This document shows, piece after piece, positions 8,147-15,377 of a stretch of 64,000 nt of DNA (position 1 is the first letter of the stretch; each line of letters begins with the position of its first letter). The DNA comes from Reclinomonas americana ATCC 50394 (Eukaryota). The position numbers and the translations under genes were made by a program. The stretch is from assembly GCA_048213135.1 (NCBI GenBank), contig PS015010.1:744001-808000 (forward strand), read 5' to 3'. The notes beneath the pieces were generated by a model. That model was given only the letters and a program-made list of their open reading frames with translations. It did not search any database and was not told the DNA's origin.

Positions 8147-8461
8147 GCAGGATTGGAGCAAACGATAACGGAGTTAGTGCAATCAGCTATGGGGGTAGTG
8201 CATGCGTTCGTGGAATTCGTGCAAATGCTTATGGGGTTAGTGCAGATGCCTATGGGAGTAGTGCAAACTGCTATGGGACTAGTACAATCGTGAATGGAGA
8301 TCGTGCAAACAGTTATGGGACTCGTACAGTCGTTAATGGGATTTGTGCAAATGTCTATGGGAATAGTACAAACACTTATGGGAGTAGTGCAATCCTCAAT
8401 GGGGTTAATTCAATCATTAATGGGAGTTGCGCAAACACCTATGGAACTTCCGATGCCGCCG
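8147..8461. repeat. Degenerate 21-bp tandem repeat array (about 14-15 units)
   Basis: Units start exactly every 21 nt (8168, 8189, 8210, 8231 ... 8441). Consensus is roughly ATGGGRNTAGTGCAAWCNNNT, with no indels. Confidence 0.9.
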
Positions 8462-8743
8462 CCTGGTCTCCCGACCAGCGGCAAATGGCCATACATCTTC
8501 GCTGGCAGAAATTTGCGGCAGGTACTATATTTACACCCACCTATGGGACTCCTCTGTGTCCTCCTTACCTCCGTGCATCTCTGTGAAAACCCCTCCGCGT
8601 ATCTCTGTGAAAACCCCTCTGCGCATCCCTGTGAAAAAATCTTATGAGAGGTTTGCAATCGTTGATGCCGCCTGGTCTCCCGACCAGCGGCAAATGGCCG
8701 TACATCTTCGCTGGCAGAAATTTGCCGCCAGGTCTTATATTTA
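8458..8743 (+). repeat. Pair of about 76-bp direct repeats (8458-8533 and 8667-8743), each beginning with a REP-like hairpin
   Basis: GCCGCCTGGTCTCCCGACCAGCGGCAAATGGCCRTACATCTTCGCTGGCAGAAATTTGC...TATATTTA occurs twice, 209 bp apart. Confidence 0.9.
8568..8639 (+). repeat. Three 24-bp CTCTGTG-type tandem repeats
   Basis: CCTCYGYGYATCYCTGTGAAAA x3. An inverted two-unit copy lies at 10679-10725. Confidence 0.85.
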
Positions 8744-8751
8744 TCACCGCA

Positions 8752-9495
8752 ATGAAAAATATACTCTTCTTCCTCTTTTGCCTGTGTATGGTCACAGCCT
8801 GTGGAACGAAACATAAGTATAACTGGTCTGAGTATACTAAACTGTCTTTTATGGCTGACAGTGCCCCGCCTCCGCCTTACCGGGGACTGGAAGCAAATCT
8901 GTTTCCGCCCATATCCCAGTCGGACGCGGATATCGAATTACGGTTCTATGGCAATTTTCAGCCCAACAAGAGAAGTATGGTTTGTGTACGGTACTATCCC
9001 GACACTGTTTTTTTTGAAAGGATCACCGGTAGGCTCAACTCTAAACATGCTGCATTGCCTGAAAACAGCAGAGACAGCCTGGCATATGCTAACGACGGGA
9101 ATTATTATGACTGGACAACAGAACTGCTCAATCCGGGGATGGAACCTTCTGTATTCATTGACAGTTTCATCAAAAAAAGATTACTAAACCCGCCCACTTT
9201 TGAAGAACTGAAAGCTGTTATACTGAAAAGCCGTAAAGATGTTATCGGCGAAGATACCGCCCACCCCAGGATAAAGTACAGCATATCAAATATTCCGCAT
9301 ACCGTTTTTCACTATGAAGTGAAGATAGGCAACAGGTACATGGCCCGGGATCTTTATACGATCAGGTATGAAGACGACCCATTGACGATCTTTAACTATG
9401 TATCGTATGGTCCGTATGTATCCTATATCAACCTTATTTTCACCCCGCCCCGTGTCATTGCAATCCGGGAATTGAAGAACGACCGGGTACCCTGA
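8752..9495 (+). CDS. Hypothetical lipoprotein
   Basis: MKNILFFLFCLCMVTAC lipoprotein signal. The upstream in-frame extension from 8644 is repeat sequence. Confidence 0.75.
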   Translation: MKNILFFLFCLCMVTACGTKHKYNWSEYTKLSFMADSAPPPPYRGLEANLFPPISQSDADIELRFYGNFQPNKRSMVCVRYYPDTVFFERITGRLNSKHAALPENSRDSLAYANDGNYYDWTTELLNPGMEPSVFIDSFIKKRLLNPPTFEELKAVILKSRKDVIGEDTAHPRIKYSISNIPHTVFHYEVKIGNRYMARDLYTIRYEDDPLTIFNYVSYGPYVSYINLIFTPPRVIAIRELKNDRVP

Positions 9496-9955: not shown

Positions 9956-10630
9956 TTATCGTTCACGCGGTACAAAAGTAACAGGCTGCAGGAAATAAGG
10001 CTGCGGACCTGTCAAAACGCTGTCTTTTTTAAGCAGGAATGCTGTGGAAGAACCGTTCCATTCCGATTTTGGGCTAAGGCCCCATTCCGGCGGTATACCC
10101 AGGCGGATGGTGTAGTGCCCCGCCTGTGTTGCGGGTATAGTCAAATTTTGATTGAAAACACGGGAAAGTGTTTTGAGATATATTTCTGCTTTGTTTCTTT
10201 TGTAAGCAACTTTTTCATCGCCTTTGTTACCATCGCCAAACGGGTAAACACCGGTGCCGGGCACCCGCAGGCCCAATGCCATGCTGTAGGTAATGTTCTC
10301 CCCGTTTTTATTGAGGATGGTTACGCTGATGCTGTCTAATGTGCGGGGCGTAAATAGAACCGTATCTACGATTTTAAATGTGGCAATGTTAGCCGTACTG
10401 AAAAAGATAGTGTCCTTCTTAGCTCTCCACCTGCCATAATTGATATAGGAAGAAGATTCGCAGCCCTGCTCCCAGAAATAGTTGCCGTTGCTGTACAGCA
10501 GAACCGAAGCGGAGCACAGTCCGCCACTCATGCTGGCATGATAGTAAGTGTATGCGGGTTTTGCTGGCTTTTGCGCCGGGCTTTGATTATGGGCAATAAA
10601 AAGTAACAGCAACAGGAAACACGGTTTCAT
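9956..10630 (-). CDS. Secreted hypothetical protein
   Basis: 224-aa ORF with an N-terminal signal peptide, co-oriented with the GNAT gene. Confidence 0.7.
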   Translation of the reverse strand: MKPCFLLLLLFIAHNQSPAQKPAKPAYTYYHASMSGGLCSASVLLYSNGNYFWEQGCESSSYINYGRWRAKKDTIFFSTANIATFKIVDTVLFTPRTLDSISVTILNKNGENITYSMALGLRVPGTGVYPFGDGNKGDEKVAYKRNKAEIYLKTLSRVFNQNLTIPATQAGHYTIRLGIPPEWGLSPKSEWNGSSTAFLLKKDSVLTGPQPYFLQPVTFVPRER

Positions 10631-10678
10631 GATTGAAAACTAGGTCATTTTGCAGACATTTTGTTGACGAGGGGAAGG

Positions 10679-10725
10679 TTTTTCACAGGGATGCGCAGAG
10701 GGTTTTCACAGAGATGCACAGAGGG
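10679..10725 (-). repeat. CTCTGTG-type repeat, inverted copy of 8591-8638
   Basis: Reverse complement reads CCCTCTGTGCATCTCTGTGAAAACCCTCTGCGCATCCCTGTGAAAAA. Confidence 0.85.
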
Positions 10726-10863
10726 AAGTATAACGAAAAAATAGGTAATGCTGTTGCGGGAACTACGCAGGGAAGAAATACTCAGCAGATATATTTTCGG
10801 ATTGCAAACTTTACTAAAACCATCATGGTGCCATTCCAACTTAATTATCAGACTGCCCAAAGT

Positions 10864-10946
10864 AAAAGGGGAGGCATACGGATGAAAGTTCCGAGACAGA
10901 TTAAAGCGCCAGTTTTAATAGAGTTTGCAGTGACCTTCCTTTTTTT
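10864..10946 (+). ncRNA. Putative C4/CI-like antisense RNA or attenuator
   Basis: Closing stem 10864-10876 with 10931-10943 followed by a U-tract, and an inner CGGA..GAAA..TCCG hairpin. Segments are complementary to 10803-10820, 10950-10961 and 10966-10977. Confidence 0.55.
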
Positions 10947-10964
10947 CATTTTAATCTGTCTATT

Positions 10965-11255
10965 ATGCAAATCTCTAATTGTCAAAAGAATGCCCGGGGT
11001 AATCGTGCCACCGGTATTGATGAAAACCGGTATATAACCATTAAGAAAAAAGCCATCTGGCTTACTGCTGAAGAGGAGGAGTTTATACAATTTGTAAAAT
11101 TCCACGGCATTGAGCAACTGGCCCAATCCTTACGCATGATCCACGACCTGGCGCTGTACCACACCGACACGCCTTTTGACGCGGAAGAAAAAACGGCGCT
11201 GTTTGATTTGAAGGTATTGTGGGAAGGGTTGGAGAGGATGGAGTGTGAAACATAA
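10965..11255 (+). CDS. Small hypothetical protein (96 aa)
   Basis: ATG in AT-rich context and a helical-looking C-terminal half. It follows the structured leader. Confidence 0.6.
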   Translation: MQISNCQKNARGNRATGIDENRYITIKKKAIWLTAEEEEFIQFVKFHGIEQLAQSLRMIHDLALYHTDTPFDAEEKTALFDLKVLWEGLERMECET

Positions 11256-11283
11256 GTAATTGAACGATTGAATAGAGGTATCT

Positions 11284-11922
11284 ATGCAAAATAGTGAGGC
11301 GGAGCCATGGGGGTGGGCAGATTTTGAAGATGACAATATCCTGCGAACAGGTAAGCCAATTCTGATCGGTATTACTGAGTTCACTAAACTACTGGCGCCT
11401 TGCTTGTTGGCAGGTAGTGCCCAATCAAGAAAAAGTTATGTAGACCAATTGCTGGCCGCCCATGAATGGAACATATATTATTCCGACAGGCATTCCGGCA
11501 AAAGAGTGATGGGAGAGGCCGGTTCAATTGATTATCCGCATGAATTAAAAACAGCCATTGCGCTTGCCCGGCATGGTTATGATGTGCTGTTTGCCCCCAA
11601 ATGTATGTTCAAACGATCTGAAAAGAAATTCGACATTTTCATTGCTAAAGAACACATTTTGCTAAAGGCCGATCTTAAATATATCTCCAGTAAAAATCCG
11701 GATACCATTGCCAATAGGGTAAGGGGTGGTTCTTTCCAGGCGTCGAGGGTTGTTGTGGAAATAACTTCAGATATTAATAAGAAAGACCTGATCTCCGGGT
11801 TAAGAAGCGCTGCATTCAGAAATGACCAGTTACGGGAAGTATGGCTTTTTTACAAAGGGAAACTGTATATCCTTCCTGCAAGTCTTATAAAGAGTAAACG
11901 TGTTTCCAGTGCTATAAAATAA
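11284..11922 (+). CDS. Putative CdiA-CT/MuF-toxin-like PD-(D/E)xK nuclease (possible tRNase)
   Basis: HELKTAIALARHGYDVLF...KKFDIFI...ADLKYISSKNPDTIANRV...QASRVVVEI...EVWLFYKGKL matches the E...D...DxK pattern of CdiA C-terminal tRNase-type domains. Confidence 0.6.
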   Translation: MQNSEAEPWGWADFEDDNILRTGKPILIGITEFTKLLAPCLLAGSAQSRKSYVDQLLAAHEWNIYYSDRHSGKRVMGEAGSIDYPHELKTAIALARHGYDVLFAPKCMFKRSEKKFDIFIAKEHILLKADLKYISSKNPDTIANRVRGGSFQASRVVVEITSDINKKDLISGLRSAAFRNDQLREVWLFYKGKLYILPASLIKSKRVSSAIK

Positions 11923-11990
11923 AAAGGGCTTTCAGTGAAGCCCTTTTAAAGTTTTTGTCATTGGGGAACCGAATGGTTCAAGCCGCTGAT
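11921..11990 (-). ncRNA. Candidate small RNA (about 70 nt) convergent on the nuclease gene
   Basis: Perfect -7 box TATCTTTG on the minus strand (12002-11995), then a GAACC-ATTC-GGTTC hairpin followed by CCCA, then the terminator. There is no ORF in between. Confidence 0.4.
11922..11947. terminator. Bidirectional intrinsic terminator
   Basis: AAAAGGGCTT TCAGTG AAGCCCTTTT with A/T tracts on both sides. Confidence 0.85.
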
Positions 11991-12076
11991 GTCACAAAGA
12001 TAAGAATGAATTTAATACTATGTTCTTTTACACAAGATTATTTTCAATCGTTAACGTTTGTTAATAAGATTTGTTT

Positions 12077-13987
12077 CTACAACACAATATCTCCAATCTT
12101 CGTCGCCAGTGTACCCACATCATCAACAGTATGATTGGTACGGTTCGACATAATGGCGATGGAGAGGCCATTGTCGCGGTACACACGCAACTCGGCACGG
12201 GCGCCATTGAAACTGCCGTTGTGTTCTGCTACACGGCGACCACCAATGTCGCGGACTTCCCAGGCAATACCATTAGGCTGGTCAGATTTTACACGGTTCC
12301 ACAACACATTGTCGCGGGCAGCGGGTTTTACAATTTGTCCATTAAGTACCTTCCAGCCAAACATGGCCAGGTCTACAGCGCTCAGTTCTATGCCACCGCC
12401 AAACACTTTCCAGCTGTTGTTGCCGTAAGAGCTGCTGGAGTTATCGTCGTTATAAGGTTTGGCTCTTTCGTAGTCATAAGGTATGGAAGCAGTGGTAAAT
12501 TGTACCCGAAGTGTGCCCAGTCCGTATGGATCGGCTAACTCTGATTTTACGAGTTGTGAAGAGGTGCGGCCGGTCACTTTCTCCAGTACCGCGGCCAGGT
12601 AAGTATGCGCATGTGTGGAGTAGTTGCGATTGGTGCCAATGGTACAGCCGGGCAGCAGGTCGGCACTCCATATCTGCGTAAGGGCGTCAATGGCTTTGTT
12701 GTACTGCATCGTGGCAGGCTCCGGGCCATCGTAGTGCTTGATACAACCGAGATGAGCATACAACTGCGCTACAGTTTGGGTGTGCTTGGCAGGAATGGTC
12801 ACCACGCTGCCGTCAGACTTAGTTACATTGGTAAGATAATTTTTGATGGGATTATTTAGGTTCAGGCTTACAGATGTGCCGTTGCGCAATTTGCCTTCGT
12901 CCTGCAGTTTTACGGCGAGGGTGCCGCTGAACAGTTTGGACACGGAGGCGGACAAGTAGATGGTCTCTCCATGCGCCACCTTATTATCTTCCTTATCGGC
13001 AAAGCCAAAACCACGGCGGTAGATCATTTCTCCGTTGCTTACAATAGCCACGGAAATGCCGGGCAGGTTGTTGTCATTCTTGTACTTGGTAATAAGGTTA
13101 TCGAGTTCATCTTTCTTATTGTAATTGAAAATGGTACTGTTGTTGTCGATCCAGATACCACCATAGCGCATACCATCAGGTGTGGAATAACATTCAAAAT
13201 CAATGATGCGGTAACCCCGATCGCGGTACTCCCTCCAGAGGTTGGCATATTCCACTTCTGTACGGCCAGTGCGTACCTGGTAAGCAATGCCGGAACGTTT
13301 TTCACATACGAAAGCGTAACGCTGGCCACCATCTGTATACGAATCAAAATTGGTAACAACATAACCCTTACCAGTAAGGTCATCAAGTTTGGCCTGGTAA
13401 TCGTCGCGGTCAAGGCCGTGTACTTCTTTCCAGTCGGCGTTGTTGTGGTTTTTAACCCATATCGCTGCATAACGTATGCCGCTGCCGGTGGCGTACATTT
13501 CCAGGTCAATCATTTTACGGCCCTCACCTTTTTGTTCGGTAATGTAGGCCTCGTATTGGGCCTTGGTCATGTCGCGTTTGGATGACCAGCTGTAGCCTTC
13601 GGTATTTTTTATCCAGATGCCACCATAGCGCATGCTGTTGCCCACGCGGTAGCATTCGATGTCAACGGGGCGGTAACCCTTGGTCTTGAAATCTTCCCAT
13701 TTGTCGTGGTAAGCATCGCTGGTCATGTTGCGGTATTCGGCCCAGGCCCGGCCACTGCTGTTCTTTTCCCATACCATGGAAAAACGGGTGCCGCCCGATG
13801 TTTCGTACGCATCCAGGTCGATCATGATGTAATCCTTTTTATATTGCTCGAACTTGTCATGAAACGCGTCGTCGGTAAGGTCGCGGTACGACAGCCAGCC
13901 GATGTTTTTAGCAAAGCTGGGCTCGCCTGCATACGTCGTACTGACGAATACGGCGAAGAGTAATGTTGTTACAATTCTGTAAAGCAT
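12077..13987 (-). CDS. Serine hydrolase (beta-lactamase-like fold) with five N-terminal polyglycine-hydrolase-like (BTRD1) repeats
   Basis: Five repeats of about 50 aa (W...T...Y...GY...D..Y...RYxxIW). C-terminal SVSK (SxxK), YST and HNG motifs. Signal peptide. Confidence 0.85.
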   Translation of the reverse strand: MLYRIVTTLLFAVFVSTTYAGEPSFAKNIGWLSYRDLTDDAFHDKFEQYKKDYIMIDLDAYETSGGTRFSMVWEKNSSGRAWAEYRNMTSDAYHDKWEDFKTKGYRPVDIECYRVGNSMRYGGIWIKNTEGYSWSSKRDMTKAQYEAYITEQKGEGRKMIDLEMYATGSGIRYAAIWVKNHNNADWKEVHGLDRDDYQAKLDDLTGKGYVVTNFDSYTDGGQRYAFVCEKRSGIAYQVRTGRTEVEYANLWREYRDRGYRIIDFECYSTPDGMRYGGIWIDNNSTIFNYNKKDELDNLITKYKNDNNLPGISVAIVSNGEMIYRRGFGFADKEDNKVAHGETIYLSASVSKLFSGTLAVKLQDEGKLRNGTSVSLNLNNPIKNYLTNVTKSDGSVVTIPAKHTQTVAQLYAHLGCIKHYDGPEPATMQYNKAIDALTQIWSADLLPGCTIGTNRNYSTHAHTYLAAVLEKVTGRTSSQLVKSELADPYGLGTLRVQFTTASIPYDYERAKPYNDDNSSSSYGNNSWKVFGGGIELSAVDLAMFGWKVLNGQIVKPAARDNVLWNRVKSDQPNGIAWEVRDIGGRRVAEHNGSFNGARAELRVYRDNGLSIAIMSNRTNHTVDDVGTLATKIGDIVL

Positions 13988-14075: not shown

Positions 14076-15377
14076 TTACAGGTTGTATTTACGGAGTAAC
14101 TTCTCAAAGTTTTTTGACCTGATGAAATTCTGTTTCTTTTTGTTCACCTGTATCGATTCTAAAAAACCCAGATTCACCAGGGCCTTTATATCTGCTCTTG
14201 CTGTGAAGTTGGAAACGGTGAACCGCGACTCTATTTCCTTAATGTTCAGTACCCTTTCCGGGTCGTCGTACAATATCTTGAGTACCTGTGCCATCCTGTC
14301 ATTAACCAGTGGAATAGTTAAAAAGCGTGCGGACTGAAATACTTCTTTTTGTTTCCTGTTGATATATGTTCTCAGCGCTTCAAATGCCTTCTCCATGGTT
14401 TTGATATGGTAGGTTATGAAGTAACTCAGGTCATTCTCATCTGTTTCTGTGTATAAGTAGGCTTTCTCATATTGTCCTTTTGTATCCTGTATGATCCTTG
14501 AAATAGACAGGTATTCCGTTAGCCAGTATCCTTTTTTAAGCATGTACCAGTAAAACAAGGCTCTTGCTGTTCTCCCATTGCCGTCGGTGAAAGGATGTAT
14601 CCATCCGATCATAAAGTGAACGATGCAACCCTTGACTATCGGATGAATGAAGTTCTCCGTATCTGTGTTGCAAAATGTACAAAGGTCTTTCATTAGTGCT
14701 GATAATTCTGCAGCCGGGGGAGGTGTATGCGCAATTTCGCTGATACTGTGATCTACTACGTAAACCTCATCATCCGCATTCCTGAACCGGCCTTCGTCCT
14801 CATCATCATTCAGTGTTTTGCTGGTCATCAGTTGATGTACATGCAATATACTTTCCGGGGTTATGGCTTCATTCTTTTGCTGAACAATGTGCTTCATCGT
14901 GATGAAGTTGTTCAATATCATTTGTTCCGACCTGTTCTTTGGCTTTTGTTCTTTCTGGATCATTTCTTTCGCCTTTTTCCTCGTGGTATTGGCACCTTCT
15001 ATCTGGCTGCTGGAAATGGCTTCTTCCATAAGCGAACTGATCACGAATTTAGTTTTATCCGTTTCCGCAATACCAATATTGCTGCTGAGATTTCCCCCGA
15101 TGTGCAGGTCAAACTGGTGCAGCGCACGCAACATAAAATCGGTTATAACATAATGAAAATTGTATTTTCCAAAGCGAATGTTACTGGCCTTTATCCACCG
15201 GTAGTGCTTAACTGCATTCCAGACTTCTTCGGGGTTGTATTTGCCTGATTTGTATTTGATCTTATCCCAGTATAAATAGTTATCCTGGATATCCTTCATG
15301 ATACCTTCCGACTCCAATTTTACCATAAATGGTATGATGTCGCTTTCTTTTCTATATAGAGGAGCTTCTTCCAGCAT
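14076..15377 (-). CDS. Fic family protein with N-terminal inhibitory motif and probable C-terminal winged HTH
   Basis: HPFTDGNGRTAR catalytic motif, SSQIEG (S/T)xxxE(G/N) motif and a C-terminal VSNFTARADIKALVNLG helix. Confidence 0.92.
   Translation of the reverse strand: MLEEAPLYRKESDIIPFMVKLESEGIMKDIQDNYLYWDKIKYKSGKYNPEEVWNAVKHYRWIKASNIRFGKYNFHYVITDFMLRALHQFDLHIGGNLSSNIGIAETDKTKFVISSLMEEAISSSQIEGANTTRKKAKEMIQKEQKPKNRSEQMILNNFITMKHIVQQKNEAITPESILHVHQLMTSKTLNDDEDEGRFRNADDEVYVVDHSISEIAHTPPPAAELSALMKDLCTFCNTDTENFIHPIVKGCIVHFMIGWIHPFTDGNGRTARALFYWYMLKKGYWLTEYLSISRIIQDTKGQYEKAYLYTETDENDLSYFITYHIKTMEKAFEALRTYINRKQKEVFQSARFLTIPLVNDRMAQVLKILYDDPERVLNIKEIESRFTVSNFTARADIKALVNLGFLESIQVNKKKQNFIRSKNFEKLLRKYNL

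Follow-up and report, generated by a model that had tools for sequence, protein, structure and literature searches.

A conserved small RNA gene convergent with a CdiA-CT/MuF-type nuclease gene: a candidate toxin and RNA antitoxin module

The window analysed here is a 64,000-nucleotide stretch of DNA filed under Reclinomonas americana ATCC 50394 (assembly GCA_048213135.1, contig PS015010.1, positions 744,001 to 808,000 of the forward strand; all coordinates below are those of the window). It contains a module of ~720 bp made up of a gene for a nuclease-fold protein, 11284..11922 on the plus strand, and a predicted small RNA gene that converges on it from the minus strand, 11914..11990. A first-pass annotation, made from the letters of the sequence, had described a lone tRNase-type toxin faced by a convergent promoter-hairpin-terminator unit and had suggested an RNA antitoxin. 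Comparison of homologous loci identifies this unit as a conserved, covarying small RNA gene, and the module is probably a toxin together with its RNA antitoxin.

The protein-coding gene specifies a stand-alone PD-(D/E)xK nuclease of 212 aa that resembles the CdiA-CT(II) toxin of strain Bp1026b (PF18451-like). Residues ~1–25 are acidic and disordered in the AlphaFold2 model, residues ~30–77 form a helical/beta N-terminal subdomain, and residues ~78–212 form the nuclease core. The core retains all of the PD-(D/E)xK motif residues, E87, D117 and D130-x-K132 (the predicted catalytic acids and lysine). In the alignment of the first 30 sequences these are invariant, as are E78, H86, Q152 and an SKNPDTIANR-like block, although the SKNP block is not invariant in the wider toxin set. 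The first-pass annotation had called for a structure search with this open reading frame (ORF), and the search leads to the CdiA-CT tRNase of PDB entry 4G6V. The model, built from the homologue alignment (predicted local distance difference test, pLDDT, 86.3; predicted template modelling score, pTM, 0.81), has chain A of this CdiA-CT/CdiI complex as its sole Foldseek match at E ≤ 0.001 (E 1.4e-4, prob 1.00, 117 columns, 25% identity, target-normalised TM score 0.64). The next matches are restriction enzymes and Holliday-junction (Hjc) resolvases, at E 0.02–0.06.

Against the Pfam family CdiA_C (PF18451) the protein scores 22.1 bits (E 1.7e-4), below the gathering cutoff of 26.6. A precomputed match to PF18451 is present in 14 of 29 close homologues, and the long and subfamily-B relatives score 21–25 bits. 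No NCBIfam model matches the toxin, PADLOC calls neither it nor the product of the adjacent ORF 10965, a sequence-profile search of the PDB gave only chance matches (E 0.3–0.7), and tblastn of cultured phages and of plasmids returned no toxin match. The protein is thus placed among the CdiA-CT/MuF-type PD-(D/E)xK toxin domains by its modelled fold and its motif, not by its Pfam score; together with the near-threshold score, these bear out the E...D...DxK tRNase-type toxin domain of the original description. This is a small family: a word-indexed search found 29 relatives of ~210 aa, and 56 relatives were found at E ≤ 0.001 among 1.84 billion representatives. Named records among them belong to Chitinophagaceae, Segetibacter, Sphingobacteriia, Puia, Terrimonas, Sediminibacterium and Ferruginibacter. 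In a review table (PMC9990079) PF18451 is assigned to the 1026b CdiA-CT toxin, and tRNA cleavage is established for this solved relative (PMC9086364); by analogy, the window protein is probably a tRNase as well. As noted at first pass, it has neither a CdiA delivery region nor a MuF head domain, and no signal-peptide-like hydrophobic stretch is visible at its N-terminus on inspection by eye, without a predictor.

The predicted small RNA is ~73–77 nt long. Its start, the A of AUCAGCGG at 11990, is deduced from promoter spacing, and its end lies in the U-tail at ~11914–11918; both ends are predictions. The promoter box TATCTTTG that had been pointed out at 11995..12002 on the minus strand is present, and is of the TAnnTTTG type, which we take to be the −7 element of Bacteroidota. 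The 5' domain of the RNA (11958..11989, minus strand) begins with P1, UCA/UGA in the window (11989–11987 paired with 11960–11958), followed by a 2x2 internal loop GC/AA, P2 (GG/CC, 11984–11983 paired with 11964–11963), a bulge, and P3. The latter is the hairpin GAACC-AUUC-GGUUC (11979–11966) of the first description. An A-rich single-stranded linker at 11948..11957 (minus strand; consensus CAAAGACUU, reading CAAAAACUUU in the window) falls within the 21-nt core considered below. The terminator-like hairpin at 11922..11947 is called on both strands, as had been proposed, and is common to the toxin mRNA and the small RNA. The U-tail beyond it (11921–11914) overlaps the TAA stop codon of the toxin gene (11920–11922). 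A covariance model of the RNA (R1) matches the window at 11914–11991 with 77.0 bits (E about 1e-17).

Conservation was assessed at 18 loci from species-representative genomes, where the 200 nt after each toxin stop codon were compared. The layout of the window is common to 17 of the 18. Read along the minus strand, a TAnnTTT(G/A) box is followed ~5 nt on by (A/G)UCGGCGG, a variable hairpin, CC(C/U)AACGAC, a stretch rich in A (consensus AAAGACUU), a hairpin rich in G+C and a U-run ending on the toxin stop codon. Folded singly, all 18 sequences give the same minimum free energy structure, consisting of P1 (UCG/CGA), the 2x2 loop GC/AA, P2 (GG/CC), a bulge of 1–3 nt, a P3 of 4–7 bp, the linker and the terminator. 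The covariance model has exactly one match at each locus, and the 64-kb window contains no second one. Once identical copies were removed, 37 distinct RNAs of this type (variant A) were left, and the architecture of the 5' domain is present in all 37.

These 37 RNAs, on an alignment fitted to the model, are paired in 88.1% of cells, compared with 76.8 ± 0.8% in shuffles. Changes on both sides occur at 17 of the 21 pairs (103 cells, against 35.9 in shuffles), and none of 500 shuffles reaches any of five covariation measures. When partners are slid by 1–3 columns pairing falls to 40–54%; the 18-sequence set gives the same covariation picture. At the third pair of P1, 34 sequences have G:C and three (the window, L016 and L051) have A:U, a compensatory change. 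P3 is represented by 25 distinct stems, the loops of which are often GNRA or UUCG tetraloops, and the terminator shows double changes at all 10 of its pairs. The convergent box, hairpin and terminator that the first-pass annotation had proposed to look for beside toxin homologues are therefore present there, and they covary. At one locus (L065:3555-3657, minus strand) an RNA variant of 47 bits adjoins an intact toxin gene; it carries a nested insertion of ~25 nt in P3, and its linker is a GAC repeat.

Outside P3, the 21-nt core of the RNA shows a mean identity of 91% over 31 of 33 loci (L066 and L067, where the anchor motif was not matched, are left out). The 75 best-conserved codons of the toxin, over the same loci, show 61% identity at the amino acid level, 73% at codon positions 1 and 2, and 40% at position 3. 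The difference between 91% and 40% indicates a constraint on the RNA core that exceeds the demands of base pairing.

This constraint bears on the main rival explanation, in which the RNA is a type I-like antisense RNA that base-pairs to the toxin mRNA at its 3' end, in the terminator or, on read-through, over all 75 nt, and causes degradation or a block of expression in the manner of RatA and txpA. The two convergent genes are predicted to have a terminator in common, which is called on both strands, and plus-strand T-runs are often poor, so that read-through is plausible. This likeness to txpA/RatA and par RNA I/RNA II, convergent small RNAs that share a terminator region with the toxin gene, extends to SymE/SymR and RalR/RalA, in which non-membrane nuclease toxins are under RNA control. 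The passages of PMC4147584 on these systems describe an overlap of ~75 nt for txpA/ratA, a shared terminator for par RNA I/II, and antisense control of the nucleases SymE and RalR. Pairing in cis needs no sequence conservation, yet the core is kept at 91% against 40% at synonymous-like sites, and a covarying hairpin with stable tetraloops argues for a folded RNA. The body of the RNA is located past the toxin terminator, and both its primary sequence and its structure are conserved. No conserved second pairing site is found near the toxin start codon, and predicted pairing of the 5' part of the RNA with the toxin mRNA has a mean z of −0.38 against shuffles, with scattered sites (28 loci). The toxin itself is a 212-aa soluble enzyme with a nuclease fold, not the small hydrophobic membrane peptide of type I systems. 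Antisense control is unlikely on this evidence, though a contender of some weight.

The box by itself carries little information, as TAnnTTTG occurs 38 times in the window and 46.05 ± 6.07 times in shuffles, which is not above chance; a single match is therefore meaningless until homologous loci are compared. Upstream of the RNA, TAnnTTT[G/A] is found at 37 of 37 distinct loci, and at 28 of them it precedes the U of the conserved UCG by exactly 5 nt. By position, the box has T at −13 (34/37), A at −12 (31/37), T at −9 (36/37), T at −8 (32/37), T at −7 (31/37) and G or A at −6 (33/37), and −1 is a purine throughout (37/37). Read on the minus strand, the 5' domain has 40 G-U pairs to 8 A-C mismatches, and the terminator 29 to 10. 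At 26 of the 37 loci the T-run that follows the terminator is richer on this strand; four loci have a poorer run and seven an equal one. Position of the box, G-U/A-C asymmetry and T-run richness all favour transcription of the minus strand.

The same features speak to a DNA-level explanation, by which the element is a recombination or cassette-boundary site (integron attC-like, for instance) through which the toxin gene is moved. The element does sit 3' of a mobile gene in varied contexts, the plus strand has GTTRRR beside an imperfect inverted repeat, and both strands are able to fold. However, there is a single core-like site, the opposite arm being GCCGCCGA and not an inverse core, and a position-fixed promoter box and a U-tailed terminator are foreign to such sites. 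The G-U/A-C asymmetry points to a transcribed minus strand, and in the neighbour comparison of 19 loci no integrase or recombinase is conserved nearby. An attC-like site was rejected on these grounds, and a DNA-level role of any kind is highly improbable.

Protein neighbours were compared at these 19 loci by matching against one another all ORFs of 60 aa or more that lie within 4.5 kb upstream or 4 kb downstream. Apart from the toxin, no neighbour family is shared beyond three close relatives (L002, L004 and L005). No conserved small immunity ORF was found directly downstream of the toxin gene, where the small RNA gene fills the slot, and no conserved protein partner was found in the comparison as a whole; the absence of a downstream immunity gene remarked on at first pass is upheld. 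The ORF closest to the toxin gene in the window, ORF 10965 (10965–11255, plus strand), lies 29 nt upstream of it. Its product belongs to a conserved ~95-aa family with 40 matches, for which named records come from Dyadobacter, Reichenbachiella and Sinomicrobium, genera absent among the toxin matches, and none of the other 18 loci encodes a relative of it (best E 0.6). A protein whose family is real elsewhere but has no member at the other toxin loci is best regarded as an unrelated neighbour, and by this comparison ORF 10965 is not a general partner of the toxin.

These data also address the suggestion that there is no functional small RNA at all, so that the hairpins serve to end the toxin gene and the convergent gene at 12077–13987, the box arises by chance, and the antitoxin is a protein, either the product of ORF 10965 or some other. 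The chance frequency of TAnnTTTG in the window agrees with this suggestion, as do the existence of a real conserved small protein 29 nt upstream and a contig from an RNA library that spans the promoter. Nevertheless, the unit is kept beside toxin homologues whichever gene neighbours it, the box is position-conserved at 37 of 37 loci, and the distribution of ORF 10965 relatives coincides with the toxin in neither loci nor genera. This explanation is disfavoured by the comparison of loci and is hardly credible.

Toxin and RNA are closely linked. Protein searches found 52 loci, 18 from genomes and 34 from metagenomes, of which 51 have downstream sequence, and the small RNA unit is present in all 51. 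Variant A accounts for 45 (17 genome and 28 metagenome loci) and a second form, variant B, for six. The metagenome loci without a variant-A match are six of the 34 (L047 and L071–L075); the contig of L047 ends inside the toxin gene. Two of the 28 metagenome matches to the RNA are truncated, one by the end of its contig past model position 44 and the other at the 5' end. At none of the loci examined was an intact toxin gene seen to lack the RNA.

In an independent test, the RNA model and, in a separate search, the protein profile were run against 151 genomes of the family that includes L011. Strong RNA matches (62–78 bits) are found in G001, G103, G132 and G150, and toxin matches at E ≤ 3e-39 in exactly the same four, where RNA and toxin abut tail to tail. 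G011 has a weak toxin-profile match of 19.5 bits. The RNA is single-copy in each of five whole genomes. Ten weak RNA matches (28.7–32.1 bits) in nine toxin-free genomes were rejected: nine of them are without the core motif, and the tenth (L027), which has no promoter or terminator, is internal to a coding sequence of 299 aa. The weak match at L036 is a plain terminator. L011 comes from a DSM strain, a cultured carrier of the cassette.

At three distinct loci a broken toxin gene is accompanied by an intact RNA and promoter. The toxin is cut down to a C-terminal remnant in L018, reduced to a C-terminal half with a stop and altered motif residues in L026 (= G103), and frameshifted ahead of the last ~35 residues in L061/L062. 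These loci are possible antitoxin-only relics. Their existence is relevant to a further explanation, in which the RNA is a dedicated partner of the protein and not its inhibitor, serving as cofactor, guide, scaffold, or sensor or switch, for example in phage infection. An obligate ribonucleoprotein of this kind would also account for the strict co-occurrence and the constrained core. However, persistence of the RNA beside three decayed toxins is a better fit to an antidote, and an uninhibited cytoplasmic tRNase-like toxin would be hard to carry. In addition, the RNA occupies the immunity-gene slot of polymorphic toxin cassettes, as these are laid out in a passage of PMC5576092. A non-inhibitory partner is, on the whole, improbable.

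The most divergent toxin subfamily (subfamily B; L017 and L071–L077, 32–35% identity) is without variant A. In the same place there is a convergent unit, variant B, that consists of a TATATCTTTG-type box, an RNA of ~107 nt and a terminator abutting the stop codon. Its consensus has four hairpins, and 7 of 37 pairs are changed on both sides among four distinct sequences. The 5' domain repeats the architecture of variant A, and L017 has the identical GC/AA internal loop.

The subfamily-B domain is a stand-alone ORF in L017/L071 and in L072. In L074–L077 it is found at the C-terminal end of a MuF-like head-morphogenesis protein of 552 aa. The first ~340 residues of this protein have matches among the PHROGs for head morphogenesis and minor head proteins (phrog_7625, E 1.5e-51), and its gene comes after those for the small terminase, the large terminase and the portal protein. 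Pfam models call no MuF domain in the 552-aa protein. Among ten longer toxin homologues, three are clearly of the MuF-like head-protein type and a fourth is so weakly. Past the toxin of L077, the plus strand has just two ORFs, of 52 and 35 aa, both of which overlap the RNA, and the genes that follow are encoded on the opposite strand; this puts the RNA gene in the immunity-gene slot of a polymorphic toxin. A passage of PMC5576092 names the 1026b tRNase domain among MuF cargo, and in the MuF model given there the toxin is a virion protein; immunity at the level of mRNA would therefore be useless against the incoming protein. An antisense RNA would instead silence the MuF head protein, which further lowers its appeal. 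Capsid genes do not follow the packaging and MuF module of L077; in their place is a converging block (L077:5768-8968, minus strand) with several small ORFs and a 515-aa DNA-methyltransferase-like protein.

The module shows partial likeness to several known systems. It shares with CdiA-CT(II) 1026b/CdiI (4G6V, PF18451) the PD-(D/E)xK toxin fold and a near-threshold Pfam score, but it lacks both a CdiA delivery region and a conserved immunity ORF, CdiI-like or otherwise, its toxin has an additional subdomain at the N-terminus (~30–77), and a small RNA gene takes the downstream slot. Polymorphic toxins, including those of contact-dependent inhibition (CDI), Rhs, MuF and other systems, have been described as paired with protein immunity genes. 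Likeness to MuF polymorphic toxins, with the toxin domain at the C-terminus of a phage head protein, is confined to relatives; the window protein stands alone, and the fused toxin is followed by a convergent small RNA gene and not by an immunity ORF. A full-text literature search, with supplementary files outside its scope, found no RNA in the immunity role of polymorphic toxins, and a full-text search on RNA antitoxins of tRNase toxins, tRNA-mimic antitoxins and PF18451 found no description of this arrangement.

With the type III systems (ToxIN, CptIN and TenpIN) the module would share an RNA that binds and neutralises an endoribonuclease toxin, a likeness proposed here by analogy. No protein-acting RNA antitoxins other than ToxI-like repeat arrays are known. 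In the sections of PMC5086642 on type III loci, the antitoxin is a repeat array upstream of the toxin gene on the same strand, separated from it by a terminator and processed by the toxin. The RNA described here differs in being single-copy, downstream and convergent, with a promoter of its own, and the toxin fold is unrelated. No tandem repeats are found in 11200–12100; the only array found is at 10676–10725. The 'type III-like' label of the first-pass annotation is therefore apt for the mechanism proposed but not for the genetic definition, which involves toxin-processed repeats in an upstream, same-strand position under a single promoter. The module fits the definition of neither type III nor classical type I.

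A related early idea, that the RNA is a short helix ending in CCA and so mimics a tRNA 3' end, is unsupported. Of the CCCA that follows the hairpin, two Cs are base-paired with the conserved GG close to the 5' end, within a longer helix, and the As sit in the conserved internal loop; several loci have CCUAA at this position, so that the trinucleotide is not kept as CCA; and ~40 nt of RNA come after it. Mimicry of a T-loop is also unlikely, the apical loops being 3–7 nt long and many of them plain GNRA or UUCG tetraloops. A looser decoy relationship survives by analogy. The RNA begins 1 nt before P1 and so would present a flush 5' helix end with a 3' single strand, loosely resembling an acceptor stem, and the closest solved relative of the toxin cuts the tRNA acceptor stem. 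The best matches in an Rfam scan of 10500–12500 (E up to 10) were at chance level, 15–23 bits against gathering scores of 38–115, and ARAGORN found no tRNA or tmRNA in 10000–13000. Two other candidate roles were set aside. A copy of a cellular RNA is not indicated, as a 14-nt core with up to 2 mismatches is no commoner in five genomes than a reversed control. A coding function is not indicated either: the AUG in the window (9 codons), which results from the compensatory C-to-U change, is missing from most loci, and differences in stem length are not multiples of three.

We propose that the module is a mobile two-gene cassette in which a cytoplasmic PD-(D/E)xK nuclease toxin is paired with a convergent, structured RNA of ~75 nt that would serve as its antitoxin or immunity factor. 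Transcribed from its own promoter, the RNA would fold into a conserved helix, internal loop, helix and variable hairpin, followed by the A-rich single strand and the terminator. It may then bind the toxin through its invariant helix-internal-loop-linker core and block the active site as a pseudo-substrate, an action that would be type III-like by mechanism but not by family. The cassette can also be fused behind a phage MuF head protein, with the RNA gene replacing the usual immunity ORF. Direct binding is favoured by the invariant single-stranded and internal-loop nucleotides, by the scaffold-like variability of P3, by the fact that the toxin mRNA has no conserved complementary site, and by the consideration that a phage toxin would arrive as protein. 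From these sequence features, neutralisation by direct protein binding has close to an even chance of being correct.

Several points weigh against an RNA antitoxin of this kind. The toxin misses the Pfam gathering score, and tRNA is suggested as its substrate by analogy with the solved relative. Covariation was counted on an alignment fitted to the model, among sequences that are mutually related. The known type III antitoxins are all toxin-processed repeat arrays, unlike this RNA; the convergent layout and the shared terminator are those of some type I systems; and any toxin transcripts that read through would be complementary to the RNA over its full length. The strands are not distinguished by the folding energy of the 5' domain, which is lower for the minus strand at 15 of 37 loci. 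Expression and function are both read from sequence comparison. Evidence from RNA libraries comes from Logan contigs of a ~95% identical relative in a single study (two metatranscriptome runs), which cover 11221–11975, 11993–12419 and 11723–12054, one of them bridging the promoter. As these contigs give no ends, strand or level, they are not counted as evidence of a transcript; they show that the locus is present in RNA libraries and no more.

If the proposal is true, the range of ways in which cells restrain nucleases is wider than has been described, and some 'orphan' toxin domains without an immunity ORF would be explained. The RNA would also constitute a compact, sequence-defined inhibitor of a PD-(D/E)xK RNase. 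A toxin with an RNA antitoxin is of a known kind; what would be new is a single-copy, convergent RNA in the immunity slot, with no Rfam family above its gathering score in the scanned interval. There is a substantial chance that the cassette represents the first case of a polymorphic toxin with an RNA as its immunity factor. A fuller version of this idea is more speculative, and falls somewhat short of being probable: an acceptor-helix-like pseudo-substrate would plug a CdiA-CT/MuF tRNase, the cassette would travel between chromosomes and virion proteins, lysogens would owe their protection against injected toxin to the RNA and not to a protein, and the RNA would found a new class of protein-binding antitoxin RNAs unrelated to ToxI repeats.

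Other features of the surrounding sequence are as follows. The gene that converges on the small RNA gene (12077–13987, minus strand) encodes a 636-aa protein with five BTRD1 polyglycine-hydrolase-like repeats (E 1.9e-57) and a beta-lactamase-fold domain (E 7.5e-38). Farther along, 14076–15377 (minus strand) encodes a 433-aa Fic/DOC family protein with a C-terminal helix-turn-helix, a second toxin-like gene within 3 kb, and the region may be an accessory or defence-type island. In a relative found in run X11 (~92–95% identical), 1560 other letters lie between 12006 and 12078, and 243 letters take the place of 10773–11030; the shared block stops immediately outside the −7 box, a hint that the cassette may have its right-hand edge there. 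Upstream, a 23-nt unit, AGGGTTTTCACAGAGATGCACAG, is repeated 2.2 times at 10676–10725, and short high-depth contigs from several runs stack on 10680–10715. ORF translations around 8400–8800 (to 8820 at the widest) repeat the same peptide words. The repeats at 10676–10725 and 8400–8820 look like a dispersed element of the repetitive extragenic palindromic (REP) type.

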